From Gammaproteobacteria bacterium (GTDB lineage: Bacteria > Pseudomonadota > Gammaproteobacteria > Pseudomonadales > Porticoccaceae), in contig JBKHWK010000001.1 in assembly GCA_046566625.1 (NCBI GenBank), positions 245 to 64,244 on the forward strand: DNA of 64,000 nucleotides, in the 5' to 3' direction. Position 1 is the stretch's first letter. Every line of letters begins with the position of its first letter. Below are positions 12,833 through 64,000 of this stretch, piece after piece. Made by a program: the position numbers and the translations under genes. The notes beneath the pieces were generated by a model that saw nothing but the letters and a program-made list of their open reading frames with translations, was not told the DNA's origin and did not search any database.

Positions 12833-13336
12833 CTACCGAGGCTTCGGCAGCACCACCAGGCGCGTCCCGCTGCCGAGATCGTGCAGACAATCCCCCGAGC
12901 GGCTCCACAGGCACCAGAGATAGCCCAGCACCGAAACCAGCGAGAACGGCGCCAGCAGGCAGCGCAGCCAGGCTTGTCGCCAGGTGGGCGGGCTGCCATC
13001 GGGCTGTTGCAGGCGCAGCCGCCAGGTTTTCATGCCCAGCGTCTGGCCTGCCCGGCGCCAGCACCAGATGTAATACAGCGACAGGAACAGCCACAGCCCT
13101 GCCAGGCCCAAGCCGCCCAGGGGGTGGGCCTCATGCGCGCCGAAAACTTGCACCTGAACCGTCAAGATAATCCCGACGTATACAAAAGCCAGCGCAATCA
13201 GCAGCAGGCCGTCGTAGACCAGCGCAGCGAGGCGGCGCCAGAGCGGGGCCGCCGGCAATGCAGCATGGTGACCGTTTACGGCGGTGGAAGCGGGCTCTGC
13301 CGACACGGGGCGCGACTGCATTTTGAGGGGTGGCAA
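12833..13336 (-). CDS. RDD family membrane protein
   Basis: 167 aa. WRRLAALVYDGLLLIAL, multiple TM segments and a C-terminal HDLGSGTRLV, which is the typical RDD layout. Confidence 0.7.
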   Translation of the reverse strand: MPPLKMQSRPVSAEPASTAVNGHHAALPAAPLWRRLAALVYDGLLLIALAFVYVGIILTVQVQVFGAHEAHPLGGLGLAGLWLFLSLYYIWCWRRAGQTLGMKTWRLRLQQPDGSPPTWRQAWLRCLLAPFSLVSVLGYLWCLWSRSGDCLHDLGSGTRLVVLPKPR

Positions 13337-13675
13337 TGATAGCGCAGGCAGTCTCGGTTGCCATGAGCGGACGCCTGGTGGCAGCAGGTGATTCTTGCAC
13401 GCCTGCTTATCTCCAGAGTGGGCTGTGAGTTCCTGCTGTGGAGCCAGCCTCGGCGGCCCCGCAAGCCCACGCGTACGGTATCCTGCTCCAGGATGGGGCC
13501 ATCAAACCGTTTCGGTAACCTGGATGGCGTTGCAACTTTTGGCAACCCCGTGAATCATAACCGCGACCCCTGCCTGTAAGAGGGCAGCCGGTTCGGCGAC
13601 CAACACAGCGCCAACAACCCGGAGCCAGCAACCTGGCACCAACTACTTGGCACCAACAACCAAAGGATACCCATC

Positions 13676-14038
13676 ATGACAACACAAGCGAAAAAACCCG
13701 TTGCTGCGGCCGTCGGTGCTGCTTTCCTCGCGTCGGTCGCCCTGGCGCCCCTGGCGCAGGCAGCTGAAAATCCGTTTCAGGCCAACAGTCTCAGTGGTGG
13801 CTACACCCTCGCCGAAAAGACCATGACCGAGGGCAAGTGCGGTGAGGGCAAGTGCGGCGAAAGCATGAAGAAAGCGGACGAGGGCAAGTGCGGTGAGGGC
13901 AAGTGCGGTGAAGCTATGAAGAAAGCGCACGAGGGTAAGTGCGGTGAGGGCAAGTGCGGAGCCAGCAAGGCAGCGCCCAGCGCTGAGGCGGCAGTCGAGG
14001 CAGCAGGTGAGGCAGCAGGCTCGGCTACCAAGCCCTGA
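13676..14038 (+). CDS. hvfA: Secreted cysteine-repeat precursor protein, HvfA-like (six EGKCG motifs)
   Basis: 120 aa. Sec-type signal peptide ending LAQA/AEN. Then three units of [11 protein letters not shown](S/A)MKKA(D/H), the last truncated. All six Cys of the protein lie in EGKCG. AAGGA RBS at 13662-13666. DUF692 and DUF2063 genes follow directly. Confidence 0.8.
13829..13960 (+). repeat. 51-bp tandem coding repeat (2.6 units) with nested 15-bp EGKCG sub-repeat
   Basis: Unit 1 is 13829-13879, unit 2 is 13880-13930, and a partial unit 3 is 13931-13960. Units 1 and 2 differ at 5 of 51 positions by direct comparison. Confidence 0.9.
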
Positions 14039-14055
14039 GTCCTGAAGAGTCCGCC

Positions 14056-14901
14056 GTGATCCCGCTTGCGGGTGCCGGTCTGGGGCTGCGGCGGACCCTG
14101 CTGGGTCCGCTGTCGTCCCGTACTGCTGCTGACGTGCAGTTTCTGGAGGTTGCGCCCGAGAACTGGATTCGTGTCGGCGGCCGCCTCGGACGGCAGTTGG
14201 CGGAATACACCGAGCGCTTTCCCTTCGTCTGTCACGGCTTGTCCCTGTCCCTGGGTTCCGCCGATCCGCTCGACCGGGATCTGCTCGCCGGGATCAAGGG
14301 ATTTCTCCAGCGCCATCGTGTCCTCTGCTACTCGGAGCACCTGAGCTACTGTAGCGATCAGGGCCATCTCTACGATTTGCTGCCGATGCCCTTCACCGCG
14401 GAAGCCGTGCGGCATGTGGCGGCCCGTATCCGGCAGGTACAGGATGTTCTCGAACGCCGCATCGCGATCGAAAATGTTTCCTACTACGCCGCGCCGCTCG
14501 CGGATATGAGCGAGATCGAGTTTCTCAACGCGGTATTGACGGAAGCGGATTGCGATCTGCTGCTGGACGTCAACAATGTCTATGTCAACAGCGTCAATCA
14601 CGGTTATGACGCGGAAGCGTTCCTGGCGCGGATTCCCGGCGCTCGCATCGCCTATGGTCATATCGCGGGCCATTTTGTGGAAGCCGAAGATCTGCTCGTG
14701 GATACCCACGGCGCCGATGTGAACGATCCGGTATGGACGCTGCTGCAATCGGCCTATCGGCGCTTTGGGGTTTTTCCGACACTGCTCGAGCGCGATTTCA
14801 ATCTGCCAACGGTGGAGCTGCTCCTGGCGGAAGTCGCCAAAATCGGCGCGATCCAGGCGGAGGCTTTGGCCGTACGGCGCCCTGCGGTGGCAACGGCATG
14901 A
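14056..14901 (+). CDS. hvfB: DUF692 / MNIO-family (MbnB-like) multinuclear non-heme iron oxidative enzyme, HvfB-like
   Basis: 281 aa, GTG start 17 nt after hvfA. Blocks [33 protein letters not shown] and [15 protein letters not shown] are typical of the DUF692 TIM-barrel family. Confidence 0.85.
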
Positions 14902-15686
14902 ACGGTAGCGTGCCGGAGTTTCAGCGCGTGCAGCGCCGGTTTGCCGCGCACCTGCGCGATCCTGATCGCAATCCGGCGCCCGGCGGTGTCGAACCGCGCC
15001 GCCTGCGGATTTACCGGGATCTCGTGTTCAACAACATCGCCGGTTTTATCCGCAGTGGCTTCCCGGTGCTGTGCGATATCCTGGGGCCGGCGCGCACGAA
15101 CGCGCTGGTACGGGATTTCATCGTCCGACATCGCGCGGAATCGCCCTATTTTCTCGATATCGGCCACGAATTCATCGCGTATCTTCAGAACGAATACGAA
15201 GCTGCCGCGGGCGATCCCGATTTCCTGCTGGAGCTGGCGCATTACGAGTGGGTGGAGCTGGCGCTGGAGGTGGCGGAGATCGACTATCCGGTGACCGGAG
15301 TCGATCCTGGCGGCGACTTGTTGTCGGGGTGGCCGCTGGTGTCGCCGTTGGCGTGGAGCCTCTCTTACCGCTATCCCGTGCATCGGTTGGGGCAGACGTA
15401 CCAGCCGGGCGCGCCGCCGGCGCAACCCACCTTTCTGGTGGTCTACCGCAATCGTGACGACGAGGTGAAATTCCTGGAAGCCAATGCGGTGACCGCCCGC
15501 CTGCTCGACCTGCTGCAGCCAGCATCGGGGACGCCCGTTCGCACCGGTGCCGACGTGTTGCGGCAGATTGCCCGTGAGTTGGGGCGGGATGATGTCGATA
15601 CCCTGGTCGCGGCCGGTACTCAGCTTCTTGAAGAATTGCGCGTGCTGGACATCGTTGCCGGCGCTGCCACTGTTGGCAGGCCGTAG
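14898..15686 (+). CDS. hvfC: DUF2063 (MbnC-like) RiPP maturation partner protein, HvfC-like
   Basis: The ATG at 14898 overlaps the hvfB stop (ATGA). N-terminus [13 protein letters not shown]...[13 protein letters not shown] is typical of DUF2063 proteins that pair with DUF692. Confidence 0.8.
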
Positions 15687-15688
15687 CC

Positions 15689-15704
15689 GTTTTTCAACAA
15701 GCTG
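15689..15704. repeat. Solo copy of the 16-bp terminal inverted repeat GTTTTTCAACAAGCTG of the MITE-like family
   Basis: Exact match to the right end of the elements at 26090-26105 and 57036-57051. Lies 3 nt after the hvfC stop. Confidence 0.85.
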
Positions 15705-15738: not shown

Positions 15739-16425
15739 TTATCGCGACTCAGGGTCCATGCGGGCCACCATCTCGCGCCAGTGTTCCAGCTGCCCGGGAT
15801 GCCCCGTCTCGATTTGCTCGTTGCGGGTGCGGGACAGCCACAGCGCCTCGGTGTTGAAGCTGTACACAGGACGCAGATCGGCGCGTTCGCTGGCCGGCTT
15901 GATGAGACGGTTGAGGTTGTCGAGGATCAGTGGCTGGGCATCCGGCGTCGAGTAATAGGCCAGCACCATGTGGGCCTGATTGAGCGTCAGCGACTTGACG
16001 TAGGTTATGCGCAGTTTGGCGGTATCCATGCCCATCGCTTTTAGCGTGAAGTACTTGGCGATGGAGAAATCCTCGCAATCGCCGGCGTCGCGCACGATGA
16101 ATTCCTTCGGCGTCGCCCAGTAATCCGCGACGCCGTAGAGCTCCTCGTCGGACAGGAAGCGGGCACCGTTGAAGAACTCGTTCACCTGACGCAATTTCTC
16201 CGCTTCATCCAGATTTTGACCGTTGGCGATAATGTCTCGCCAGAGTTGCAGTCGCGCCTCGGCGCCCTGCGCATGCCAGGCGTTAAATTGCGTCGATTCG
16301 TTCCAGTCCGCCAGCGCCGGTTCCGCGCTGGTGGTATTTCCCAGCAGAATGCCACTGCACACCCACAGCGCACAGCGCCATCGTTTGGCGCCGGCGGTCA
16401 GCATCGAAAGGGAAGTTTTGCCCAT
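15739..16425 (-). CDS. lapG: Periplasmic transglutaminase-like cysteine protease (BTLCP/peptidase C93), LapG-like
   Basis: Catalytic Cys motif GDCEDFSIAKYF, with downstream HMVLAYY and LILDN (Cys-His-Asp). Signal-peptide-like N-terminus. Adjacent to a LapD-like gene. Start uncertain: Met at 16425 or 16404; the track ORF starts at 16470. Confidence 0.8.
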   Translation of the reverse strand: MGKTSLSMLTAGAKRWRCALWVCSGILLGNTTSAEPALADWNESTQFNAWHAQGAEARLQLWRDIIANGQNLDEAEKLRQVNEFFNGARFLSDEELYGVADYWATPKEFIVRDAGDCEDFSIAKYFTLKAMGMDTAKLRITYVKSLTLNQAHMVLAYYSTPDAQPLILDNLNRLIKPASERADLRPVYSFNTEALWLSRTRNEQIETGHPGQLEHWREMVARMDPESR

Positions 16426-16547
16426 GCGCGGGATGCTAGCATCGCGCGACAGTTGCGCCGCTCGTGTCACTGTCGAACTGTGACGGGACGCGCATTTGGC
16501 AATGTTTCACACGTTTGGCTAGACTGCGGCGATCTCCCTGGGCAGGT

Positions 16548-18506
16548 ATGCGCGTGACACTCTTTCGCCAGTTGGTATTGGCTGTACTGACCCTGACCCT
16601 GCTGTTGTATGGCGTCAATAGCGTGATCAGTCTCTCCAATACACGCGCTCTGGTAGCGCAGCAGATGGCGGTTCACGCCCAAGACGCGGCGACGTCCATC
16701 GCGCTGGCATTGTCTCAGGGGGACGTAGCCGCCGATCCGACGCTGCAGGAAGTACTGTTTAACGCCATTTCCGACGGTGGGTATTACCAGCGTATCCAGT
16801 TCCGGGGACCCAAGGACGATATTCGGTTGGTGAGGGAGTTTCCGGCAGGCGACCTCAGCGTGCCGGACTGGTTTGTCGCACTGATGGCGCTGCCCGAACA
16901 TACCGGTCGTGCCGAAGTGTCGAACGGCTGGAACCGTCTCGGCGAGATCGTGGTGGTCAGCAACCCGGGACAGACCTATCGCCAGTTATGGCAGTTGGCG
17001 TGGGAGCAGCTGCTGTGGTTCACCGTGGCCGCGATCCTGTTTTGCGGGCTCGGCATCCTGGGCTTGCTCTGGTTGTTGCGGCCACTGCGGCGCATCGAGG
17101 CTCAGGCGGATGCCATTCGCGAACAGCGCTTCGTGGTCCAGGAGGTGCTGCCGCGGGCGCGCGAGCTGCGTTCCGTGGTCGATGCCATGAATCGCATGGC
17201 GCAGGGCCTGAAGCAACTGTTTGCGAGCCAGGCTGGCATGATCGCGGATCTGCGGCGTACGGCCGCGGTTGACCCGGTGACGGGGTTGGCCAATCGCGCA
17301 GACTTTGACGCGCGGATGAAGGCCCTCGTTGGCGACGACATGGAAGCGCGGCGGGGGATGCTGGCCATCATCGCGCTGGATGACCTGGGCCGGATCAATG
17401 CTCTGGCCGGCCGTACCGAGGGCAATGCCTTGCTGACGGCGATAGGCCATGGTTTGCAGGAAGGACTGGCGGAATATTCCGGAGCTCTGGTGGCGCGTCG
17501 GCAGGGCGCGGAATTCGCGGTCTTTGTGGCTGATCTGGATGCCCGGGAGGCGGGTGTTGCGGCCTTGCATGCGCTGCGCAGCGCGGAAGCCATAGCCTTC
17601 CCACATCGGGAAAAGCTGCCGCTACGGTTTCGCATGGGCTACAGCTACAGTCCGGCAATCGACCGTGAAACCGATTTGCTGGGAGAAGCGGATCAGGCGT
17701 TGCGCCAGGTTGCGCCTGGGGCGGTGCCCAATTACCTTCGCCACGGCGCCCTGGATACCGGCGCCATTCCGCTGGTATCACGGCCGAACTTCGACTGGAT
17801 CGATCTGATCGAGCGTTTGCTGGAGCAGCGTTCTCTCGAACTCCTGTATCAGCCCACCGTGAGTGTGCCTGGGCGCAATCCGATCGGCTGTGAGGTCTAC
17901 AGCCGGATGCGGCCCGAGGCGGAGGCGCACGCCATCGCGGCGGGGGTGCTGCTGCCGATGGTGGAGCGGGTAGGGCGTGCGCCCGTCTATGATCGCCTGG
18001 TACTGGAACTGCTGGCAGCGCGCACCGACCTCGAGTCACCCATGTACGCGGTGAATCTCAGCATCCCCTCGGTTCAGTCTGCCGGTTTTCGCAGTTGGCT
18101 TGGCGAGTTTCTGGCGGTCAACCGGGCGCTCGCCAACCGCCTGGTATTCGAGGTGCCGGAGCGGGCACTGGCCATCGCGGAAGGTGCGACGCGAGATTTT
18201 CAGCGCCTGGTGGGAGACCACGGCTGTGGCCTTGCGCTCGATCACTTTGGGTTGGAGTCAGCCAATTTCGCCTATCTGGGCAGTCTGCCCCTGGCCCACG
18301 TCAAGGTCCACCGAAGCATCACGCGCGATATCGATCAGCACCGCGATAATCAGTTTTACCTGAAGTTCATGGCTGAGCTGATGCGTGCCCGGGAGATTCC
18401 CTTGCTGGTCGAGGGCATCGAGCAGGAAGCCGAGTGGAACATCTGCGCGGAACTTGGCGTCGATGCCGGCCAGGGATTTTTACTGGGCCGTCCCGAACCC
18501 CGCTGA
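16548..18506 (+). CDS. lapD: LapD-like inner-membrane c-di-GMP receptor (LapD/MoxY periplasmic domain-HAMP-degenerate GGDEF-degenerate EAL)
   Basis: 652 aa from MRVTLFRQLVLAV. Two TM helices flank a periplasmic domain containing SNGWNRLGEIVVV. The GGDEF position reads RQGAEF. The EAL position reads GCEVYSRM after LLYQP. This matches the LapD architecture. Confidence 0.8.
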   Translation: MRVTLFRQLVLAVLTLTLLLYGVNSVISLSNTRALVAQQMAVHAQDAATSIALALSQGDVAADPTLQEVLFNAISDGGYYQRIQFRGPKDDIRLVREFPAGDLSVPDWFVALMALPEHTGRAEVSNGWNRLGEIVVVSNPGQTYRQLWQLAWEQLLWFTVAAILFCGLGILGLLWLLRPLRRIEAQADAIREQRFVVQEVLPRARELRSVVDAMNRMAQGLKQLFASQAGMIADLRRTAAVDPVTGLANRADFDARMKALVGDDMEARRGMLAIIALDDLGRINALAGRTEGNALLTAIGHGLQEGLAEYSGALVARRQGAEFAVFVADLDAREAGVAALHALRSAEAIAFPHREKLPLRFRMGYSYSPAIDRETDLLGEADQALRQVAPGAVPNYLRHGALDTGAIPLVSRPNFDWIDLIERLLEQRSLELLYQPTVSVPGRNPIGCEVYSRMRPEAEAHAIAAGVLLPMVERVGRAPVYDRLVLELLAARTDLESPMYAVNLSIPSVQSAGFRSWLGEFLAVNRALANRLVFEVPERALAIAEGATRDFQRLVGDHGCGLALDHFGLESANFAYLGSLPLAHVKVHRSITRDIDQHRDNQFYLKFMAELMRAREIPLLVEGIEQEAEWNICAELGVDAGQGFLLGRPEPR

Positions 18507-20212: not shown

Positions 20213-20288
<76 letters not shown>

Positions 20289-25980: not shown

Positions 25981-26105
25981 GTCGCGAGGGGGCCAGCTGC
26001 GAGGCGCACGGCGCGCAGCGACCGAGACATATCAAATAGATAGGCGAGGGATCGAGCACCGCGCAACGAAGCAGATGGCTGCCGCAGCAGTTTTTCAACA
26101 AGCTG
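25981..26105. repeat. MITE-like imperfect-palindrome element, copy A (left end missing or degenerate)
   Basis: The core GTCGCGAGGGGGCCAGCTGCGAGGCGCACGGCGCGCAGCGACCGAGA... through the right TIR GTTTTTCAACAAGCTG (26090-26105) is nearly identical to copy C. Begins 26 nt after the rsmJ stop. Confidence 0.85.
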
Positions 26106-26110
26106 CTAAA

Positions 26111-26968
26111 ATGGCCACCCCATCTCTGGCGGATGGGCGTCCCAAAAGTGGCACCATGGCAATTGATCCGCCCGCAGCTTTCTTCGAATCCGCGCCCTGG
26201 CTGAATGGACCTTCTGCGCTCGATGCGGATTGGTCCGATGTCGTGGATGCGGTTTACTGCATATCGCTGCAGACCCGACCCGACCGCATGGCGGCGGCAA
26301 ATGCCGAAATCAACCGGGTCGGACTGGCGCCGTTGACCACTTTTTACCGGCCACTCCCACATCCGGAACGGCCTGTTCAAGGGATCTGGGAAAGCCACCG
26401 CGCCGTGGCCCGTCACGCGCTGGAACGTGGCTTGCGGCGCGTACTGATTCTTGAGGACGACATTCGCTTCAGCCGGCCGCCGACCGCTGCCCGCCGTGCC
26501 CGGCTTGCTGCACAACTGGCTGGCTTGCCGGCAGACTGGAACATCTTCTTTCTTGGCCACTGGCCGTTCCGGGCAAGATTCGTTGCGCGCGATCTGGTGC
26601 AAGTGGAATCCGCCTGCGCGCACGCCTACATTGCCAGCGAACGTGTGCTGCGGTGGCTCGCCGAGCGGCCATTCGGTTTCGACGGTGTGGCATTGCGCCG
26701 GGGTGCCGGCAAGGGCATCGACTCCGCATATTCGGTGTTGCCGGACTGCTTCGCGGTGTTTCCGATGCTGGTGGTGCAGGGCGCAAGCCCGAGCGACCAC
26801 TTTGCCCATCTGCGCAACAAGGGAGGCCGCAAGTTGCATCACCGGCTGATGCGCTGGGTACCCGCCGAGCGGTTTTACGCCTTCGGAATGCGCGCGGCGG
26901 AAGTCGCGGCAGTGGCGCGGGCGTTACCCAGTTTCTTCCGGGCGCTGCTGGTGCGACCCAAGCGCTGA
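26111..26968 (+). CDS. Glycosyltransferase family 25-like protein (LPS/LOS biosynthesis type)
   Basis: VYCISLQTRPDRM, ILEDDIRF and AHAYIASERVLRWL resemble GT25. Start uncertain. Track start 26075 lies inside the repeat element, so ATG 26111 is preferred. Confidence 0.5.
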   Translation: MATPSLADGRPKSGTMAIDPPAAFFESAPWLNGPSALDADWSDVVDAVYCISLQTRPDRMAAANAEINRVGLAPLTTFYRPLPHPERPVQGIWESHRAVARHALERGLRRVLILEDDIRFSRPPTAARRARLAAQLAGLPADWNIFFLGHWPFRARFVARDLVQVESACAHAYIASERVLRWLAERPFGFDGVALRRGAGKGIDSAYSVLPDCFAVFPMLVVQGASPSDHFAHLRNKGGRKLHHRLMRWVPAERFYAFGMRAAEVAAVARALPSFFRALLVRPKR

Positions 26969-35186: not shown

Positions 35187-35312
35187 TGGTATAAAGCCGA
35201 CCGCCGCTACGGCGGCAATCAACGCGCACTGTGCGCTAACGCCACACACATACCGGCACGTCGTCCTGGGTGCCCTGCGGGGTTGGACGATGGGGTATGT
35301 GGAGGTCCAACC
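35187..35312 (+). promoter_or_regulatory. Putative rpsB promoter/structured leader
   Basis: Extended -10-like TGGTATAAA at 35187-35195. An 8-bp-stem hairpin GGTTGGAC...GTCCAACC at 35281-35312 ends just upstream of the AGAGGA RBS. Confidence 0.35.
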
Positions 35313-42632: not shown

Positions 42633-45047
42633 GTGCTCTCCGTCTTCACACTTCCTGAACCTGTACTTTCGTACCCGGAGTTGTTTGCCATCAAACCACA
42701 ACTGAGGCGTAGCCTGGCCAGGATCCGCCGCCGCGCGAATGCGCTCTGCGTGTCGCTGCTGCTGGTCCCCGGACTGACCTTTGCCGCGGCGTTCCAGGTA
42801 GAGGATGTGCGTATCGAGGGCTTGCAGCGGGTTTCTGCGGGCACCGTATTCGCCGCCCTGCCGGTCAGTGCCGGCGACCTGATCGATGACGCGGGAATAG
42901 GCGCTGCGGTGCAAACCCTGTTTCGAACCGGATACTTCGAAGACATACGAATTGTGCGCGATGGCGATGTGCTGGTCGTGCGGGTGGTGGAGCGTCCTGC
43001 CATTGCCGAAATCAAAATCGACGGCAACAAATCCATCGAAACCGACCAGCTGCTGAAAGCGCTGCGTGACGCCGGTCTGGCGGAGGGGCAGATTTTCAAG
43101 AAGACCGTGCTGGAAGGGATGGGGCAGGAGTTGCGGCGTCAATATGTCGCGCAGGGACGTTATGGAGCCGGGGTCAATGCCGAAGCGCATGATCTGCCCC
43201 GCAACCGGGTGCGCATCGACCTCAGCATTTCCGAGGGCAACGTAGCGACGATCAAGCACATCAATATCGTGGGTAACCACAGTTTTGATGAGGCCGACCT
43301 GCTCAAGATGTTCGAGCTCAAGACAACCGGCTGGTTCTCCTGGTTGAGCAGCGACGACAAGTATTCCCGCGAAAAACTTTCCGGTGACCTCGAGCGCCTG
43401 GAGAGCTGGTATCGCGATCGTGGGTATCTGCGCTTTGCGATCACTTCAACCCAGGTGTCAATCAGCCCGCAGAAGGATGCTGTATTCATCGCCGTCAACA
43501 TCTCCGAAGGCGATGTCTACAAAGTGGGGGACGTGGAGCTCAGCGGAGAGCTGATGCTGCCGGAGGAAGACCTCCGGCAACTGATTGTGATGAAGAAGGA
43601 CGCTGTCTTTTCGCAGGCACTGATGACGGCGACCAGCGAGCTGCTGTCCAAGCGACTGGGTACCGAGGGCTACACTTTTGCGAAAGTGGAGGGTTTCCCC
43701 GAGGTTGATGAGAACGATAAAACCGCCAAGGTGACGTTCGTCGTTACGCCTGGCGACCGCGCTTACGTTCGGCGCGTGGAGTTTCGCGGCAATACCAAGA
43801 CGGCCGACGAAGTTCTGCGTCGGGAGATGCGGCAGATGGAAGGTGCCTCGGCATCGACCGACCTGATCGACCACTCGAAGGTCCGTCTTGAGCGGTTGGG
43901 TATTTTCAAGAAGGTGGACATCGAAACGCGCGAGGTCCCCGGCACCAGCGATCAGGTTGATGTGTTTTATACCGTGGAAGAGCAACCGTCCGGCAGCATT
44001 GGCGCGAGTATCGGTCTCGCCCAGGGGGCCGGCATCATTCTCGGCGCCAACATCCAGGAAAATAATTTCCTGGGGTCTGGGAACACGGCTGGCTTCGGCA
44101 TCAGTACCAGCGAATACCGCAAAATGGCGTCGCTCAATTACGCCGACCCCTATTTCACCAAGGATGGCATCAGTGCCGGCTACTCCCTGGCGGTGACCCA
44201 GACCGACTATGGGGAGTTAAACCTGACTTCCTATTCCACGGATAGCTATACCGCCAATACCAATTTCAGTTATCCCTATTCAGATACCGGGCGCATCGGC
44301 CTGGGATTTGGCGTGGAATCCCTTACATTGAAGCCAGGCGTTTTTTCCACCTTCGAGCTTCTCAATTTCATCCAGGACAATGGTGATCAGTTCGATATGC
44401 TGACCACCAACTTCAACTGGAGCGAATCGGACTTGAATCGTGGCCAGCTGCCTACCCGGGGCTCATCGAACCGAATCCGGTTCGAATTGACGGTCCCGGG
44501 CAGCGATCTGGAGTTTTTCCGGCTCACCTATACCGGGCACTACTATCGTCCGTTATCGGGTGATTTGACGTTCCATGTGCGACAAGAGCTGGGTTACGGC
44601 GACGGCTACGGCGATACGGAAGACCTGCCGTTTTTCAAGAATTACTTCGGTGGCGGATTCGACTCGGTGCGCGGGATCAAGCGCAATACCCTGGGGCCGG
44701 AGGATACTCCGATATTTCCAACACTCACTCGATCCAATGCTTTGGGCGGCAACGTCGATATCAATGGCAGCGCCGAAGTGCTGTTTCCGGCTCCCTTCCT
44801 GAAGGATCGTCGCAATATCCAGCTTGCGCTGTTTCTGGATGCTGGCAACATCTTCGCCACCAATTGTGGCAGCGGGCAGGTGGATTGTGGGTCGCCAAAC
44901 ATTGGCGACTTGCGCTATTCAACCGGGTTGAGCGGTATCTGGCTGAGTGGTTTTGGTCCGATCCAGTTGAGTTTGGCGAAGCTACTCAATGGTGAGTCGA
45001 CTGACGAAGAGGAGTTTTTCCAGTTTTCTTTTGGGCAGACTTTCTAG
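42633..45047 (+). CDS. bamA: Outer membrane protein assembly factor BamA
   Basis: POTRA repeats begin at FQVEDVRIEGLQRVSAGTVF. C-terminal Omp85 barrel ends in F. Start uncertain: the GTG at 42633 leaves an unusually long N-terminal leader. Confidence 0.93.
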   Translation: MLSVFTLPEPVLSYPELFAIKPQLRRSLARIRRRANALCVSLLLVPGLTFAAAFQVEDVRIEGLQRVSAGTVFAALPVSAGDLIDDAGIGAAVQTLFRTGYFEDIRIVRDGDVLVVRVVERPAIAEIKIDGNKSIETDQLLKALRDAGLAEGQIFKKTVLEGMGQELRRQYVAQGRYGAGVNAEAHDLPRNRVRIDLSISEGNVATIKHINIVGNHSFDEADLLKMFELKTTGWFSWLSSDDKYSREKLSGDLERLESWYRDRGYLRFAITSTQVSISPQKDAVFIAVNISEGDVYKVGDVELSGELMLPEEDLRQLIVMKKDAVFSQALMTATSELLSKRLGTEGYTFAKVEGFPEVDENDKTAKVTFVVTPGDRAYVRRVEFRGNTKTADEVLRREMRQMEGASASTDLIDHSKVRLERLGIFKKVDIETREVPGTSDQVDVFYTVEEQPSGSIGASIGLAQGAGIILGANIQENNFLGSGNTAGFGISTSEYRKMASLNYADPYFTKDGISAGYSLAVTQTDYGELNLTSYSTDSYTANTNFSYPYSDTGRIGLGFGVESLTLKPGVFSTFELLNFIQDNGDQFDMLTTNFNWSESDLNRGQLPTRGSSNRIRFELTVPGSDLEFFRLTYTGHYYRPLSGDLTFHVRQELGYGDGYGDTEDLPFFKNYFGGGFDSVRGIKRNTLGPEDTPIFPTLTRSNALGGNVDINGSAEVLFPAPFLKDRRNIQLALFLDAGNIFATNCGSGQVDCGSPNIGDLRYSTGLSGIWLSGFGPIQLSLAKLLNGESTDEEEFFQFSFGQTF

Positions 45048-45189
45048 CGGCTTGTTGAAAAAAAGAGGTCGCGAGGCGGTCAAATGCGATGCGCACGGCG
45101 CGCAGCGACCGAGACCTATCAGATGTAGGCGGGGGAGCGAGCCCCGCGCTTGGAAGCGGATGACTGCCACAGCAGTTTTCAGCAAGCTG
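45048..45189. repeat. MITE-like imperfect-palindrome element, copy B (diverged)
   Basis: Starts 1 nt after the bamA stop. Left end CGGCTTGTTGAAAAAA and right end GTTTTCAGCAAGCTG. The core shares GCGCACGGCGCGCAGCGACCGAGA with copies A and C. Confidence 0.8.
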
Positions 45190-56910: not shown

Positions 56911-57051
56911 CAGCTTGTTGAAAAACGTCGCGAGGGGGCCAGCTGCGAGGCGCACGGCGCGCAGCGACCGAGATATATCGGGTAGATAGGCGAGGGAGCG
57001 AGCACCGCGCAACGAAGCAGATGGCTGCCGCAGCAGTTTTTCAACAAGCTG
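56911..57051. repeat. MITE-like imperfect-palindrome element, copy C (complete, 141 bp)
   Basis: Perfect 16-bp terminal inverted repeats CAGCTTGTTGAAAAAC (56911-56926) and GTTTTTCAACAAGCTG (57036-57051). Starts 5 nt after the tilS stop. No ORF of its own. Confidence 0.9.
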
Positions 57052-58026: not shown

Positions 58027-58225
58027 AATTGCGCGATAAGCGCCCCTAAACAACGGGTTCGCGGCAAGGAGCTTGCTCGATTTTCGTGAACTCCAGCCAT
58101 CGGGAAATTCCGTTTTCTCAAGCGCGGCCGCATTCGCGGACCCGCTGCGTTGGTTTTGCCATGGTCTGCCAGCGTCGCGTAATCTGCGGGCTTGGCGGTA
58201 TGTCCACGGCGGAGGGGTGAGATTA

Positions 58226-59743
58226 GTGGCGGTAGCGCATTTCGACGTATTGATCATCGGCGCTGGCATTTCCGGGATCGGCGCCGCCTTTCATCTGCAG
58301 CGCGACTGCCCGACCAAAAGCTACGCCATACTTGAGAGCCGCAACGCCTTGGGGGGGACCTGGGACCTGTTTCGCTACCCGGGGATTCGCTCCGATTCCG
58401 ATATGTATACCCTGGGCTACTCCTTCAAGCCCTGGAAGGAACAGAAAGCCATTGCCGACGGACCTGCCATCCTCAGGTATCTGGAAGAAACCGCCGACGA
58501 AAATCACATCCGGGAAAAAATCCGTTTCCAGCACCAGGTGCGCAGCGCTGCATGGTCGACGGAAACCGCTTGCTGGACCGTGCAGGCTGAGCGTGGGGAA
58601 GCCCGGGAGCCCGTCACTTACACCTGCAATTTTCTGTTTCTGTGCGGAGGTTATTACCGCTACGCGGCGGGCTACACGCCGGATTTTCCGGGAATCGACC
58701 GCTTTCCGGGACGGGTGATTCACCCGCAGCACTGGCCCGACGACGTCGATTACCGCGACAAAAAGGTGGTGGTGATCGGCAGTGGTGCCACCGCCGTGAC
58801 GCTGGTGCCGGAGCTGGCGAAAACGGCCGCGCACGTCACCATGCTGCAACGCTCGCCCACCTACATGCTGTCGCGCCCGTCCGAGGATGCCCTGGCCAAC
58901 CGGCTGCGCCGGATACTGCCGGCGCAGCTCGCCTACGACCTCATCCGCTGGCGCAATGTGCTTCTTACCCTGTTTGTTTTCAGCCGCTCCAAAAAAAGCC
59001 CGGAGCGCATGAAGCGTTACCTCATCAACCAGGTGCGCAAGCGCCTCGGGCCTGACTACGATGTCGCAACGCACTTCACGCCATCCTACGGCCCCTGGGA
59101 TCAGCGTCTGTGTCTGGTGCCGGACGATGATTTCTTTGACGCCATAAAAAGCGGCAGCGCGTCCGTCGTGACCGACCACATCGACACCTTCCTCCCCGAG
59201 GGTATCCGGTTGAAATCCGGGCAGGTGCTTGCGGCGGACATGGTGATTACCGCAACCGGGCTGGCGCTGGAGGTGTTCAACGGTGTCGCGGTGAGTGTCG
59301 ACGGCAAAGCCGTCGTGCCGGGCGAAACCTTCATGTACCGGGGCATGATGTACAACGACGTGCCCAACCTCGCCACCACCTTCGGCTACACCAACGCTTC
59401 CTGGACGTTGCGCGCCGATCTCACCAGCACCTATGTGTGCCGGCTGCTGAACCACATGGAAAAGACCGCGACGCGCCAGTGTACGCCGCGTTTGCGCGAC
59501 CCCACCATGGAGGAAACCGCCTGGTTCAATCTGTCGTCCGGCTATGTGCGCCGCGCCGCCGGCAAGCTGCCAAAACAGGGTGACAAGGATCCGTGGTTTG
59601 CCCCGCAGAACTACCTGCGCGATCTCAAAAACCTGAGGTTTTGCGCGGTCGACGACGGTGCCATGGAGTTCAGCAATCCGCCACGCCCAGACTTGGCCCC
59701 AGAACTCCCGGCCGCGCGGACAGTTGGGCAACGATCGGCCTGA
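58226..59743 (+). CDS. Flavin-dependent Baeyer-Villiger-type monooxygenase (FAD/NADPH-binding)
   Basis: GxGxxG motifs IIGAGISG and VIGSGATA. BVMO fingerprint FPGRVIHPQHW (FxGxxxHxxxW). A GTG start after GGAGG is preferred. The track ORF starts at 58073. Confidence 0.85.
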   Translation: MAVAHFDVLIIGAGISGIGAAFHLQRDCPTKSYAILESRNALGGTWDLFRYPGIRSDSDMYTLGYSFKPWKEQKAIADGPAILRYLEETADENHIREKIRFQHQVRSAAWSTETACWTVQAERGEAREPVTYTCNFLFLCGGYYRYAAGYTPDFPGIDRFPGRVIHPQHWPDDVDYRDKKVVVIGSGATAVTLVPELAKTAAHVTMLQRSPTYMLSRPSEDALANRLRRILPAQLAYDLIRWRNVLLTLFVFSRSKKSPERMKRYLINQVRKRLGPDYDVATHFTPSYGPWDQRLCLVPDDDFFDAIKSGSASVVTDHIDTFLPEGIRLKSGQVLAADMVITATGLALEVFNGVAVSVDGKAVVPGETFMYRGMMYNDVPNLATTFGYTNASWTLRADLTSTYVCRLLNHMEKTATRQCTPRLRDPTMEETAWFNLSSGYVRRAAGKLPKQGDKDPWFAPQNYLRDLKNLRFCAVDDGAMEFSNPPRPDLAPELPAARTVGQRSA

Positions 59744-59899
59744 GCGAGCCCTTGATAAGTCCCGTCGACTCAACCTTTCCGTGCTGGGCAGCTATTCCGC
59801 CAACGAGGTAGAGCACCAGTTGGCCCACGAAGATGCGATGTCTGTTTTTAGCAGTAAATGGCGCATTTCTGCGCATAGGATCAACAGCAGGGAAGTTGC

Positions 59900-59928
59900 A
59901 AAAAACGGGGCTCAGGGCCCCGTTTTTT
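59900..59928. terminator. Bidirectional rho-independent terminator between the convergent BVMO and SDR genes
   Basis: AAAAAACGGGGC-TCAGG-GCCCCGTTTTTT: a perfect 12-bp stem including the A- and T-tracts. Confidence 0.75.
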
Positions 59929-59938
59929 GTGTGTGCTG

Positions 59939-60787
59939 TCAGGTCATGCTCGGCAGTCCGGTATGCGCTGTGAGTCCGCCGTCGATGATGTAGGCGGCGC
60001 CAGTGATGAAGGATGCTTCATCCGAGGCCAGAAACAACACCAGATTGGCGATTTCGCCGGGCTGGCCCAGACGGCCGATTGGGTGCGCGCCGGCCATCCG
60101 CGTACGTAGTTTCTCGCGGGTTTCATCGGACAGCTTGGGCAGGCCGGCAGGGCTGCCCGCCACCGACATGTGGGGTGTCGCCGCGCCGCTGCCGGTTAGC
60201 GCCTGGATCGCCGGTGTGTCGATGGCGCCCGGGCAAACGCAGTTCATGCGGACGCCCCTGGCCGCGTACTCGATGGCCGCGGAGCGGGTGAAGTTGATCA
60301 CGGCGGCCTTGCCGGCGTTGTAGGCGGACATGCCGTAGTCGCCCCTGGTGCCGGAAATGGACGCCGTGTTGACGATGGCGCCGCCGCCCTGGGCGATCAT
60401 GATGGGCAGGGCGTATTTGGTGGCCAGGAAGGGTGCCGTCACATTCACCGCCAGGGTGCGGTTCCAGCCTTCCAGGCTGAGGTTGGTGACGGAGCCCACC
60501 TCCGCCGCCGTGGCGTTATTGTGGAGGATGTCGAGGCGGCCGAACGTCTGCACGGCGTGCCGGATCATGCCCTGCACGGCTTCCGGGTCCGTGACATCGG
60601 CGACGAAATGGGTCGCCTCGCCGCCGCGCTCGCGCAGTGCTGCGGCGACACGTTTGGCGCTGTCGCCGTTGATGTCCACTACCACCACCTTGGCGCCTTC
60701 CTCCTGAAAGCGCAGTGCGGTGGCCTCGCCAATCCCTGAACCGCCACCCGTTATCAAAGCCACTTTACCGGCTACTCGTCCAGCCAT
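59939..60787 (-). CDS. SDR-family oxidoreductase (short-chain dehydrogenase)
   Basis: TGGGSGIG cofactor motif, and catalytic S...YNAGK (YxxxK). Confidence 0.9.
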   Translation of the reverse strand: MAGRVAGKVALITGGGSGIGEATALRFQEEGAKVVVVDINGDSAKRVAAALRERGGEATHFVADVTDPEAVQGMIRHAVQTFGRLDILHNNATAAEVGSVTNLSLEGWNRTLAVNVTAPFLATKYALPIMIAQGGGAIVNTASISGTRGDYGMSAYNAGKAAVINFTRSAAIEYAARGVRMNCVCPGAIDTPAIQALTGSGAATPHMSVAGSPAGLPKLSDETREKLRTRMAGAHPIGRLGQPGEIANLVLFLASDEASFITGAAYIIDGGLTAHTGLPSMT

Positions 60788-60831
60788 GATTCTTTCTCCT
60801 TATTCTAGAAGCGATAGGTCGCGTATTTTTA

Positions 60832-61743
60832 TCAAGCCGTATGCTGAGCCAGGAACTGGCCGATACGCGCGATGGCCTCGCGCCCCTCGGGCACCATGGG
60901 TGCGAACAGATGCCAGACATGGACCATCTCGGGCCAGACCTCAAGCGTCACATCGACGCCCGCCGCCTTGGCGTTGGCGGCCGTTCGGGTGGCGTCGTCG
61001 AGCAGGGTTTCGAGATCACCGACCTGGATCAGCAGTGGTGGCAGGCCTTTCATGTCTGCATACAGCGGCGAGGCGGTGGGCTGGCGCGGATCGGCGTCGC
61101 CCAGATAGATCCTGGCCATGCCGAACAGCCCGCCGGGTTCGACCATGGGATCGACATCGACCTTGGTGCGCATGGATTCGCCGGTGCCTTCGAGATCCGT
61201 CCAGGGCGAGATGGGTACGGCCGCACCGGGCAGCGGAGTGCCGGCGTCGCGCAACGCCACCAGGGTCGCAAGTGTCAGACCGCCGCCGGCGGAATCACCG
61301 GCGATGCTGATCTTGCCGGGTTTGTAACCCTGCGCCAGCAGCCAGCCGTAGGCCTTGGTGGCGTCCTCGACCGCCGCCGGGTAGCGGTGTTCCGGCGCCA
61401 GCCGGTAGTCGAGGGCGAGCGCACGGCAGTTGGCGGCGCGCGACAGCGCCGCGATCAGCCCCATGTGCGTCTGGATCGAGCCGATCACATAACCGCCGCC
61501 GTGCAGATACAACAGCACCCGGTCCTGATCCACACCCGGCGCGCAGACCCATGCGCCGGGAACGCCATCGACATCCACCGTCTGGACCTCGGTATCCGCC
61601 GGCGGGGTGGCGAAGTTCTTGGTCGCCTGCACGAAGTTGTCGCGCATCTTGCCGACCTTGTCCTTCATCTTTTCGTAGTCGGACGGGCCGGGATAGTTTT
61701 TCCACAACAGTTCGAGCAGTTTCTTGCTTTCCGGACTGGCCAT
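60832..61743 (-). CDS. Alpha/beta hydrolase, hormone-sensitive-lipase (family IV) esterase, paralogue 1
   Basis: HGGGY oxyanion motif, GDSAGG nucleophile elbow, and a C-terminal HVWH. Confidence 0.88.
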   Translation of the reverse strand: MASPESKKLLELLWKNYPGPSDYEKMKDKVGKMRDNFVQATKNFATPPADTEVQTVDVDGVPGAWVCAPGVDQDRVLLYLHGGGYVIGSIQTHMGLIAALSRAANCRALALDYRLAPEHRYPAAVEDATKAYGWLLAQGYKPGKISIAGDSAGGGLTLATLVALRDAGTPLPGAAVPISPWTDLEGTGESMRTKVDVDPMVEPGGLFGMARIYLGDADPRQPTASPLYADMKGLPPLLIQVGDLETLLDDATRTAANAKAAGVDVTLEVWPEMVHVWHLFAPMVPEGREAIARIGQFLAQHTA

Positions 61744-61778
61744 GACGCGGTTCCTTGATGGGTTTATTGGTTATGGGA

Positions 61779-62672
61779 TCAAGCCTGAAAGCGCCCCTGC
61801 AGCCAGCCGCCGATCTGTTCGACCGCGCGTTGGCCTTCGTCGAGCATGGGCGCGAAGGCGTGCCAGACGTGGAACAGTGCGGGCTCGTCGACCAGATCGA
61901 CTTTCACGCCGACTTTGCGGGCGTTGGTTGCCACCGTGATGGCGTCGTCGTAGAGAATCTCGCGCCCGCCCACATGGATCAGCAGTGGCGGCAGGCCGGT
62001 GAGATCGGCGAACACGGGCGAGGCCAGGGGATGCTTGGCGTCGGTGCCCTTCAGGTATTCACCGGCGAGCCGGAACAGGCCATCCGGCTTCACCATGGGA
62101 TCGCTGGCGGCGCGCGCGGTCACCGCACCGGCATCACCGGTCAGGTCGGCCCAGGGCGAAATCAGCACACCGCCGGCGGGCAGCGGCAGGCCCAGATCGC
62201 GCAGGTTCACCAGCGTGGCCAGCGTCAGACCGCCGCCCGCGGAATCGCCGGCAATGGCGATGCGGCCGGGCGCAAAGCCTTGGGCCAGCAGCCAGCGGTA
62301 GGCCTTGGTGGCGTCGTCCACGGCGGCGGGAAAGGCATGTTCGGGGGCAAGCCGGTACTCGATGCCGAGCGTGCGGGCGCCGGAATGACGCGAGACGTTC
62401 TGCATCAGGTAGCGGTGGCTGGTGATGGAGCCAATCGCATAGCCGCCGCCGTGCAGATAGAGCACCGCGCAGTCCGCACGCGCACTCGGCGCGGCCAGCC
62501 ATTCGCCGGGAATGCCGTCGACATCGACTGGGGTCAGGGTCACATCCGCCGGCACCTTGAAACGGGCGCCGCCCTCATCGAGATTGCGGCGCTCTTCCGC
62601 GATGGTCACGGTGCCCAACGGCGGTTGGCGTTCGAAAATCTTCAGCAGTTTGTCGAGTTGTTGTTGTGACAT
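61779..62672 (-). CDS. Alpha/beta hydrolase, family IV esterase, paralogue 2
   Basis: HGGGY and GDSAGG. Shares long blocks with paralogue 1: YRLAPEH, DDATKAY.WLLAQG, IAGDSAGGGLTLATLV and GLPPLLI. Confidence 0.88.
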   Translation of the reverse strand: MSQQQLDKLLKIFERQPPLGTVTIAEERRNLDEGGARFKVPADVTLTPVDVDGIPGEWLAAPSARADCAVLYLHGGGYAIGSITSHRYLMQNVSRHSGARTLGIEYRLAPEHAFPAAVDDATKAYRWLLAQGFAPGRIAIAGDSAGGGLTLATLVNLRDLGLPLPAGGVLISPWADLTGDAGAVTARAASDPMVKPDGLFRLAGEYLKGTDAKHPLASPVFADLTGLPPLLIHVGGREILYDDAITVATNARKVGVKVDLVDEPALFHVWHAFAPMLDEGQRAVEQIGGWLQGRFQA

Positions 62673-62732
62673 GAATCCCCCGGTGGTGTTGTCTGTTGGA
62701 AGTGATAAGAAAACGTTTCGCCGCAGTCTGGC

Positions 62733-63674
62733 TCAGGCATGGAACGCTTTGCGCAGTGCTGCCGCGGCCTGATCGAGAAACTGGCGACCTTCATCGATGG
62801 CCTCCGCCATCGACACAAAGCCGTGGATCTGGTTCCGGTAGCAGATGTATTCCACTGGCACGCCGGCGGCGGTGAGCTTGTCGGCGTATTCGGCGCCTTC
62901 ATCGCGCAGGGGATCGAAGCCCGCAGTCATCACCAGCGCCGGCGCCAGGCCCGCGAAATTGCTGGCGAGCAGCGGAGAGGCGAGGGTGTTGTCCCAGTCC
63001 TCGGGCTTGCGCAGATATTGATTGAAAAACCAGGTCATGGCGGTTGCGGTGAGGAAATAGCCCTCGCCGCAGTCGCGATAAGACGCGGTGTTCGCGCCCA
63101 TCCGGGTGACGGGATAGATCAGCAGTTGCAGGGCAATGGGTGGCCCCTTGCGGTCGCGGGTCATCTGGCTCACCACCGCGGAGAGATTGCCGCCGGCGCT
63201 GTCGCCGCCCACCGCGATGCGGCTGCCATCCGCACCGATCTGACCGGCATTGGCCGCGGCCCACTCCAGCACCGCGTAGCAGTCGAGCGGCGCGGCGGGG
63301 AAGGGGTGCTCGGGGGCGAGCCGGTAGTCCGGCACCAGCACGATGCAGTCGGCCTTCGCCGCGTAGTAGCAGGCTTCGGGCTTGTGGGTCTCGGGACTGC
63401 CGATCACCCAGCCGCCACCGTGGTAGTAGATCAGGATCGGTCGGGGTCCGGTCGTTGGGGTGTCGGGGGTGATGACCAGGGTGCGGATTGCGCCGCCCGG
63501 TCCGGGAATCTGTACTTCGCGGATGGACTTCGGTGTGGGCGCCTTGATGCCCACCATCTCGGTGAGGGCGGCGAAACCGGCGCGGCTTTCGGCAACGGTG
63601 CCTTCACCGAGCGCGGGGGCATTGCTGTTCGCCGTCATTTCGAGAAGTTTTGCGGCCTGGGCGTCGAGGGACAT
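62733..63674 (-). CDS. Alpha/beta hydrolase, family IV esterase, paralogue 3 (more divergent)
   Basis: YHGGGWVIGS, GGDSAGGNL, DPLRDEG and HGF (Ser-Asp-His). Confidence 0.88.
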   Translation of the reverse strand: MSLDAQAAKLLEMTANSNAPALGEGTVAESRAGFAALTEMVGIKAPTPKSIREVQIPGPGGAIRTLVITPDTPTTGPRPILIYYHGGGWVIGSPETHKPEACYYAAKADCIVLVPDYRLAPEHPFPAAPLDCYAVLEWAAANAGQIGADGSRIAVGGDSAGGNLSAVVSQMTRDRKGPPIALQLLIYPVTRMGANTASYRDCGEGYFLTATAMTWFFNQYLRKPEDWDNTLASPLLASNFAGLAPALVMTAGFDPLRDEGAEYADKLTAAGVPVEYICYRNQIHGFVSMAEAIDEGRQFLDQAAAALRKAFHA

Positions 63675-63686
63675 GTTGGTCTCCGG

Positions 63687-64000
63687 TTATGGTTGCTGGC
63701 TTGGATTGGCACCCAACTTCGGCGCGCCGGCATGGCTCATTTCCATCATGAGTGTTGCCATGGCCTGACCTGCTTGTTGTCGGTAGAAGTTTGCCTCAGC
63801 TTCCACCGGCGGGATATACCCGATCGAGCCGAGCAGTCGCTGATGGTTGAACCAGTGAACCCATTGCAGGGTGGCCAGCTCAACGGCCTCACGGTTCTTC
63901 CAGGGCCGCCGATGAATCAGCTCTGCCTTGTACAGCCCATTGATGGTTTCGGCTAACGCGTTGTCATAGCTGTGCCCTTTGCTGCCCACAGAGGGCTCGA
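63687..64000 (-). mobile_element. IS3-family insertion sequence: C-terminal part of the transposase (rve/integrase core); continues beyond the window
   Basis: The reading frame is open to the window edge. GSKGHSYDNALAETINGLYKAELIHRRPW...EAVELATLQWVHWFNHQRL is typical of the IS3-family OrfB C-terminus. A possible element end TGACCTGC begins at 63766. Confidence 0.8.

Follow-up and report, generated by a model that had tools for sequence, protein, structure and literature searches.

In the 64,000-nucleotide stretch of contig JBKHWK010000001.1 analysed here (hereafter the window), three adjacent genes form what we read as a chromosomal hvfABC operon belonging to the EGKCG (Lys-Cys) branch of the multinuclear non-heme iron oxidase (MNIO) family, the branch variously called oxazolin, Buf_EGKCG or captophorin. 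The operon would make a Cu(I)-binding 5-thiooxazole peptide and appears to be resident in its lineage; we give this reading a probability of roughly 0.85. The system is of a known kind: its family is very common, has curated models and relatives of known structure, and includes three examples studied biochemically, among them a minimal cluster of three genes. The contig belongs to a metagenome-assembled genome (MAG) deposited as "Gammaproteobacteria bacterium" from wastewater, and its close relatives, also mostly from wastewater, are labelled Porticoccaceae. Our own results concern how the genes are built, which family they belong to, their motifs for catalysis and specificity, synteny and the conservation of the promoter; for the chemistry, the export of the modified peptide, its binding of copper and the choice of sigma factor, we rely on homologues.

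The enzyme genes were assigned by profile and motif matches. HvfB matches PF05114 over positions 1-262 of the 263 in the model (E = 1.4e-104), passes the HvfB equivalog model NF003818 with 433.3 bits against a cutoff of 360, and matches the diiron DUF692 structure 3BWW with an E value of 1.8e-78. The metal-ligand motifs CHGLS (residue 59), SEHLS (93), IENVS (138), LDVNN (170), HIAGH (202) and VDTHG (215) are present together with GLRR (10) and LERDF (244); the six ligand motifs and LERDF align to 3BWW and MbnB in a test made at the level of motifs rather than structures. At the same level, R12-R13 and D247-F248 correspond to R15/R16 and D249/F250 of FonB, residues shown to control the entry and specificity of EGKCG substrates and to supply the catalytic base (PMC12668002). 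HvfC, encoded straight after the MNIO gene, consists of a DUF2063 N-terminal domain and an RRE-type C-terminal domain (PME-type 1). It matches PF09836 (E = 6.8e-26) and PF22106 (E = 3.6e-30), exceeds the cutoff of the HvfC equivalog model NF050145 (302.7 bits; cutoff 142) and matches the NGO1945 structure 3DEE (E = 1.1e-9). Both products are, letter for letter, the deposited proteins MFP5413402.1 and MFP5413403.1.

Two neighbouring identities were tested and dismissed. For methanobactin (MbnABC), HvfB reached 41.7 bits on the MbnB equivalog TIGR04159, short of the cutoff of 325, a DUF2063 protein stands in the place of MbnC, and a signal peptide precedes the precursor core. For a bufferin of the Buf1/Buf2 type (BufABC), HvfB scored 269 bits on the BufB-type model NF050167 (cutoff 310), the precursor gave no match to Pfam DUF2282, and its Cys residues lie in EGKCG repeats.

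The precursor HvfA follows the plan seen in a 24-member alignment of its family, namely a signal peptide, an invariant NPF...GY region and then EGKCG pairs, of which four is the commonest number and the window protein has three. The EGKCG motifs start at residues 52, 57, 69, 74, 86 and 91, and all six Cys (55, 60, 72, 77, 89 and 94) are the fourth residue of one, in agreement with a preliminary description of this DNA, which placed every Cys in such a motif behind a Sec signal ending AQA/AEN. The signal peptide, judged by eye from sequence features and the family alignment, shows K6 and K7, then hydrophobic residues from 9 to 26, and A-Q-A at 27-29, so that cleavage at AQA/AEN is plausible; H. 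influenzae HvfA is cut by signal peptidase I in E. coli (PMC11252979). The NPF...GY region is the probable docking site for the recognition domain of HvfC. The core is a 51-nt (17-residue) tandem repeat of 2.6 copies with 93% matches (Tandem Repeats Finder score 227), and the Ala/Glu-rich tail was aligned in the closest relatives only, most family members being without it. AlphaFold2 modelled the unmodified precursor as disordered beyond the signal helix, with a mean predicted local distance difference test (pLDDT) of 47.6. The precursor search returned at least 5878 relatives aligned end to end, some of them named "HvfA family ... RiPP metallophore" by NCBI. No entry for the exact 120-aa precursor was present in a 15-billion-protein collection that holds HvfB and HvfC of the same contig, and the small hvfA gene may have been left uncalled or called differently in the public record.

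The number of target Cys varies even among close relatives. The hvfA genes compared for repeat number (L001:9648-9992, L086:4776-5141, L088:4799-5131 and L089-L092) come from close relatives (79-91% identical), yet the count is four in L001 and L089-L092, six in the window and L088, and seven in L086. This variation suggests a rapid gain and loss of EGKCG units and is consistent with slippage in the 15/51-nt repeats, by which metal capacity might easily be tuned.

Several points count against the assignment. HvfA scored 74 bits on NF050137 (KCGExKCG_twice, the HvfA-family domain; cutoff 19.5) but only 56.7 bits on the strict, H. influenzae-type HvfA equivalog NF050188, under its cutoff of 95; the profile models thus bear out the DUF692 and DUF2063 enzymes and the HvfA-family domain named or implied in the preliminary description, and not the strict HvfA type. 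The precursor has no H. influenzae-type N-terminal Cys pair, and it carries an additional tail. HvfX/DoxX, frequent in the family and not universal, is absent beside the cassette. The locus is read from the sequence of a wastewater MAG. As the preliminary description had said, DoxX, sigma, anti-sigma and copper-regulator genes do not adjoin the cassette, and none was found in 20 further open reading frames of the window that we scanned. That this is unusual, as it also held, is not borne out: fonABC was characterised without DoxX, and the loci of relatives likewise have no adjacent DoxX. HvfX/DoxX is not a defining feature, because fonABC also does without it (PMC12668002), and the missing regulator is no anomaly, because the ECF (extracytoplasmic function) sigma gene of H. 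influenzae is unlinked to its hvf cluster (PMC7907618).

By analogy with the characterised homologues, HvfA would be made in the cytoplasm as a flexible precursor and bound by HvfC, probably through NPF...GY; HvfC would also activate HvfB, enabling its mixed-valent diiron state. HvfB, an iron-dependent TIM-barrel oxidase, would then use O2 for a four-electron oxidation at each of the six EGKCG Cys, and the expected product is a 5-thiooxazole at each site, with a loss of 4 Da per Cys or about 24 Da in total. The modified peptide would be exported through Sec, its signal peptide would be removed after Ala29 by signal peptidase I, and the resulting product of about 91 residues would bind periplasmic Cu(I) and buffer copper or oxidative stress. 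In H. influenzae, the six EGKCG Cys of HvfA are modified by HvfB and HvfC together, giving absorbance at 302 nm and copper binding (PMC11252979). For HvfA, FonA and NgoA, a loss of 4 Da per Cys, absorbance at 302-305 nm, 5-thiooxazole and Cu binding have been reported (PMC11252979; PMC12668002; bioRxiv 10.64898/2026.07.17.739211). The window product is, by this likeness, very probably a periplasmic Cu(I)-binding modified peptide. Precursors of the Buf_EGKCG/oxazolin type number about 2,000, with 2,583 complete genomes carrying one, and EGKCG-repeat clusters are reported to draw on four core genes "in various combinations" (PMC12452194).

The preliminary description had proposed a DUF692/DUF2063 cassette that oxidises EGKCG Cys to copper-binding oxazolone/thioamide pairs. 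The cassette type stands on the model matches and the copper-binding product stands in outline by analogy, whereas the oxazolone/thioamide chemistry has to be replaced. Formation of such a pair at each Cys, as by MbnBC in methanobactin, was the original assignment for H. influenzae HvfA (PMC11252979), the names of NCBIfam models still use it, and the pair and the 5-thiooxazole are isomers with the same mass change. However, the HvfBC product was reassigned from oxazolone/thioamide to 5-thiooxazole by two groups, including the original authors (PMC12668002; bioRxiv 10.64898/2026.07.17.739211), HvfB scores 41.7 bits on the MbnB model versus 433 on the HvfB model, and it shares its RR and DF determinants with the Lys-Cys group, which forms thiooxazoles. 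We therefore regard oxazolone/thioamide formation here as extremely improbable and the database label on these genes as out of date. Bufferins have been described as thiooxazole-bearing from the start (PMC12452194).

A further alternative concerns function: the peptide might serve mainly for another thiophilic metal, or, as a member of an ECF regulon for oxidative stress, for scavenging hypochlorous acid (HOCl) or other envelope oxidants. HOCl induces the H. influenzae cluster by way of RpoE2 (PMC7907618), mercury loci include some bufferin fusions (PMC12452194), the scans of the window found no copper gene, and the candidate promoter resembles ECF sites rather than CueR- or CopR-type sites. 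All characterised relatives (oxazolin, fontiphorin, gonophorin and bufferins) nevertheless bind Cu, and bufferins protect from copper stress (PMC11252979; PMC12668002; PMC11626156), so that we consider a main role other than copper buffering distinctly unlikely.

Upstream of hvfA, we aligned five lineages of the window's clade (the window itself, L001, L086, L088 and L090). Conservation starts abruptly at GTTGCAACT(T/A)T, is interrupted by a variable spacer and resumes at (G/C)AATCATA and TGTAAG. The block is also present in L094 and L096 next to unrelated upstream DNA, which brings the number of lineages to seven, while the spacer and the sequence further upstream diverge. Within the leader, CCAACAACCAAAGGA is conserved even in the distant L096, and a direct repeat TGGCACCAAC occupies 13634-13643 and 13648-13657, with one copy missing in L088 and L090. 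The string GCAACTT-N16-TCATA is the sole strict match on both strands of the window. A relaxed form, G[TC]AAC-N18-TCN[AT], lies within 250 nt upstream of 11 of 13 hvfA genes (background 5.75e-5 per nt, or about 0.014 per region), and these genes amount to about five or six promoter lineages that are independent of one another. In Neisseria, the corresponding operon has the sigmaE promoter GTMAGBWTT-N12-13-CGTCTAAH, with TCTAA 23-24 nt from the first G (PMC2893595); TCATA of the window starts 23 nt from the G of GCAACTT, matching this geometry (a GTAAG/GCAAC-type -35). The DoxX-hvf cluster of H. influenzae depends strictly on RpoE2, whose gene is found at another locus (PMC7907618).

Related genomes contain loci in which such a sigma gene accompanies hvfA. 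In L093 (Porticoccaceae; L093:6893-9166), NCBIfam models identify an ECF sigma, a ZAS anti-sigma, hvfA and HvfX/DoxX in a row, with GCAACTA-N16-TCATT upstream of the sigma gene and GTAACAA-N16-TCCAT upstream of hvfA. L099 (Porticoccaceae; L099:4001-6180) has the same sigma-hvfA-hvfX arrangement, and in L101 (Halieaceae; L101:1889-5481) hvfA-hvfX lies shortly upstream of a sigma/anti-sigma pair. None of the three loci has an MNIO or HvfC gene nearby, and maturation of their precursors would require an hvfBC pair from another locus.

As judged from sequence, the block appears to have the form of a sigmaE-type ECF promoter that travels with hvfA, a modest new point beyond re-annotation, and transcription of hvfABC probably starts from it. 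The odds are about even that it is served by an ECF sigma factor under ZAS control whose gene lies in another part of the genome. More tentatively, and at somewhat less than an even chance, the hvfA genes of Porticoccaceae, Halieaceae, Alcanivoracaceae and Spongiibacteraceae share a portable GYAAC-N18-TCNW promoter, recognised by an ECF sigma under ZAS control that is the orthologue of sigmaE in Neisseria and of RpoE2 in H. influenzae. If so, three-gene cassettes without regulator or DoxX would be wired in trans into a thiol-oxidative or envelope-stress regulon, and a second sigma/anti-sigma/hvfA/hvfX locus elsewhere in the genome might depend on this hvfBC pair for maturation; the shared motif, if ECF-dependent, would help to explain how orphan cassettes are regulated.

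Four observations speak against ECF control. The relaxed motif does not occur upstream of hvfA in L013 and L056; it is missing upstream of three of the four sigma genes examined; an ECF sigma gene of this MAG was looked for by accession series and none was seen; and the block can also be read as TTGCAA-N17-AATCAT, which has a 17-nt spacer and agrees with the sigma-70 consensus in 8 of 12 positions, A2 and T6 of the -10 hexamer among them. On the last reading, the block would be a weak sigma-70 promoter that needs an activator, and the conservation covers both readings alike. The sigma-70 reading falls under the threshold of the promoter scan, however, and conservation continues over CTT(T) past the hexamer, as expected for a GGAACTT-type -35. 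GYAAC-N18-TCNW moreover recurs upstream of hvfA genes in which the -35 is GTAACA, without TTG, and ECF control has precedent (PMC7907618; PMC2893595). We thus hold a sigma-70 promoter to be rather unlikely and retain the ECF-type promoter as the preferred reading.

Other searches of this region were negative. A sigma-70 promoter and terminator scan found no plus-strand promoter upstream of hvfA and no terminator after hvfC. An Rfam search of the leader and cassette gave no match apart from one sub-threshold chance match. As an internal control, other sigmaE-like promoters were sought in the window (at bamA, skp, rseP and other genes) and none was found. A sigma-54 reading of TGGCAC/TTGCA was rejected by eye for its wrong spacing and non-conserved GG, and a hairpin at 13571-13588 was rejected as not conserved in relatives.

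The preliminary description had taken the cassette for a small acquired module, a view that the comparison with related genomes does not support. The exact HvfB and HvfC of the window had no entry in the contig index, and the contexts compared are those of members of their clusters. The order lptF-lptG-RDD-hvfABC-lapG-lapD-gltX-dapA-bamC is common to the related assemblies L001, L086 and L088; L094 keeps hvfABC-lapG-lapD-gltX, and lptFG-RDD is replaced there by a type I restriction system and a ubiquitin-like island. Across these four same-site lineages, the proteins are 84-92% identical, and every hvfABC locus examined in relatives is without an adjacent DoxX. Five more distant genomes, namely those of Zhongshania, Spongiibacter and Alloalcanivorax and two MAGs (one Halieaceae, one Pseudomonadales), also have hvfABC a few kb upstream of gltX, again with no DoxX; it stands between hrpA and mlaA where the flanks can be read. 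HvfB is 58-66% identical to its counterparts in these genomes, compared with 60-65% for GltX. The G+C content of the cassette (0.59-0.66) is close to that of its flanks (0.58-0.71), and G+C at third codon positions (GC3) is not anomalous.

Against residence stands the fact that contexts differ across families: in L096 (Porticoccaceae), for instance, hvfABC sits between an MMPL gene and pyruvate dehydrogenase genes. Given these differing contexts, the cassette has moved as one block in the long run. Recent acquisition of a mobile module, carried in by or together with the repeat element whose end follows hvfC, would account for the varied contexts (hrpA-mlaA, MMPL-pyruvate dehydrogenase and RDD-lapG), for the compact, self-contained build of the cassette with its own promoter, for the repeat end that abuts it and for the apparent defence island that abuts hvfA in L094. 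It fits poorly with the identical location and the 84-92% protein identity in four lineages, with the ordinary G+C and GC3, with an HvfB divergence that tracks that of GltX, and with the position of hvfABC upstream of gltX in the more distant genomes, which the comparison counts as five other families. There is also a single repeat end, with no flanking pair, integrase or tRNA nearby, and at this site L001 has no repeat, L086 a diverged one and L088 a complete one, indicating that the repeat came and went independently of the cassette. We consider recent acquisition very improbable; nothing in the sequence comparisons suggests it, and the cassette appears to be resident in the lineage. A search with GltX as anchor among species-representative genomes found no clean case of an empty RDD-lapG junction, because upstream of lapG the nearest Porticoccaceae have either a putative adhesin gene or the end of the contig. 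In L094, the segment directly upstream of the hvfA promoter block (L094:1-7650) holds a type I restriction-modification system, a ThiF/E2/Multi_ubiq (ubiquitin-like) set and a DUF6290 gene, and looks like a defence island.

The repeat itself was examined separately. The 16-mer GTTTTTCAACAAGCTG occurs five times in the window at two or fewer mismatches, against 0.02 expected. The preliminary description had placed a solo end of a mobile repeat 3 nt after the last stop codon; the solo end is there, but it starts 2 nt past the hvfC stop codon, and a longer similarity of 25 nt (15680-15704) overlaps the stop codon. The solo end was rejected as a terminator, having no stable fold (z = 0.25). The full element, at 56911-57051, is intergenic and 141 nt long with perfect inverted ends of 16 nt (CAGCTTGTTGAAAAAC and GTTTTTCAACAAGCTG) and folds at -70.6 kcal/mol (z = -6.2). 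Further copies lie at 25981-26111 and, on the minus strand, at 45033-45124; all copies follow a stop codon closely, and Rfam has no family for the element.

The features of the locus are collected in Table 1. As the preliminary description had it, the three genes are tightly packed on the plus strand and stand between an RDD gene and lapG, and both the coordinates and family scans of the neighbours agree: hvfA and hvfB are separated by 17 nt (14039-14055), and the ATG of hvfC (14898-14900) overlaps the TGA of hvfB (14899-14901) as ATGA.

Table 1. Features of the hvfABC locus and its immediate neighbours (positions in the window)
Feature	Position	Strand	Remarks
RDD gene, upstream neighbour	12833-13336	-	
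Candidate hvfABC promoter	13532-13559	+	-35-like GCAACTT (13532-13538), 16-nt spacer, -10-like TCATA (13555-13559)
Putative hvfA 5' leader	13566-13675	+	CA-rich; TGTAAG (13575-13580) conserved; Shine-Dalgarno AAGGA at 13663-13667; transcription start inferred
hvfA (gene 1)	13676-14038	+	120 aa; ATG start; AAGGA at 13663-13667
Sec-type signal peptide, hvfA codons 1-29	13676-13762	+	Predicted cleavage after AQA; sequence features and family alignment
Conserved N-terminal region, hvfA codons 30-51	13763-13828	+	P33, F34, G42 and Y43 invariant in 24 family members
Core, hvfA codons 52-95	13829-13960	+	Three EGKCG pairs in 17-residue repeats; six target Cys
Ala/Glu-rich tail, hvfA codons 96-120 and stop	13961-14038	+	Lineage-specific; contains a 12-nt tandem repeat
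hvfB (gene 2)	14056-14901	+	281 aa; GTG start; PF05114, NF003818
hvfC (gene 3)	14898-15686	+	262 aa; PF09836, PF22106, NF050145
Solo terminal repeat (GTTTTTCAACAAGCTG) of a 141-nt palindromic element resembling a miniature inverted-repeat transposable element	15689-15704	+	Not part of the hvf system
LapG-like BTLCP protease gene, downstream neighbour	15739-16470	-	Pfam match; below the NCBIfam LapG cutoff

Beyond the RDD gene and lapG lie LptF/LptG on one side and LapD-like/GltX on the other. The LapG-like/LapD-like pair (15739-18506) scores under the NCBIfam equivalog cutoffs and has no adhesin gene alongside; in two related Porticoccaceae (L008:66-1928 and L010:2-1522), a large repeat-rich open reading frame lies upstream of lapG, and the contigs break there. 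A tRNA gene follows gltX directly (20213-20285), and a t44 RNA lies upstream of rpsB (35225-35311; 75.9 bits). Towards the end of the window (58073-63989), an FMO-like monooxygenase, a short-chain dehydrogenase and three tandem Abhydrolase_3 paralogues are followed by an integrase-core (rve) fragment at the very end.

The window cassette can be compared with the known systems. In methanobactin biosynthesis (MbnABC), an MNIO likewise oxidises Cys of a ribosomal peptide to make Cu(I) ligands, but the partner is MbnC, the precursor has no Sec signal, the product carries oxazolone/thioamide pairs and the role is copper acquisition rather than buffering. The Neisseria sigmaE operon (NMB2140-2145 / ngoABC, producing gonophorin; PMC2893595; PMC12668002) has the same types of enzyme and partner and includes sigma, anti-sigma and doxX genes, whereas the window has none of these nearby. 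Among the Buf_EGKCG/oxazolin type 1 precursors (PMC12452194), whose description the window precursor fits exactly and without any substantial difference, it stands at the short end of the 31-506 aa range, and AlphaFold2 gives it disorder rather than a beta-helix.

The hvfABC-hvfX cluster of nontypeable H. influenzae makes oxazolin (PMC11252979; bioRxiv 10.64898/2026.07.17.739211). It likewise encodes a precursor with a Sec signal, three EGKCG-type pairs and six target Cys, the window proteins pass the HvfB and HvfC equivalog models, and the window MNIO is closely related to 3BWW, itself 72% identical to the HvfB of that cluster. In contrast to H. influenzae, the window has neither an adjacent HvfX/DoxX nor the N-terminal Cys38/Cys43 disulfide pair, its precursor is 120 aa long against 95 aa, and its host is an environmental, Porticoccaceae-like wastewater bacterium rather than a pathogen. 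In gene content, the counterpart is fonABC of Fontimonas thermophila, the minimal captophorin cluster, which makes fontiphorin (PMC12668002) and likewise consists of an EGKCG-repeat precursor, an MNIO and a DUF2063/RRE partner, with no DoxX and no regulator. FonA is of similar size (its peptides are numbered to residue 124) and has seven modified Cys, compared with six and an extra Ala/Glu tail in the window precursor, and FonB and the window HvfB, likened by motif, have the same RR and DF determinants.

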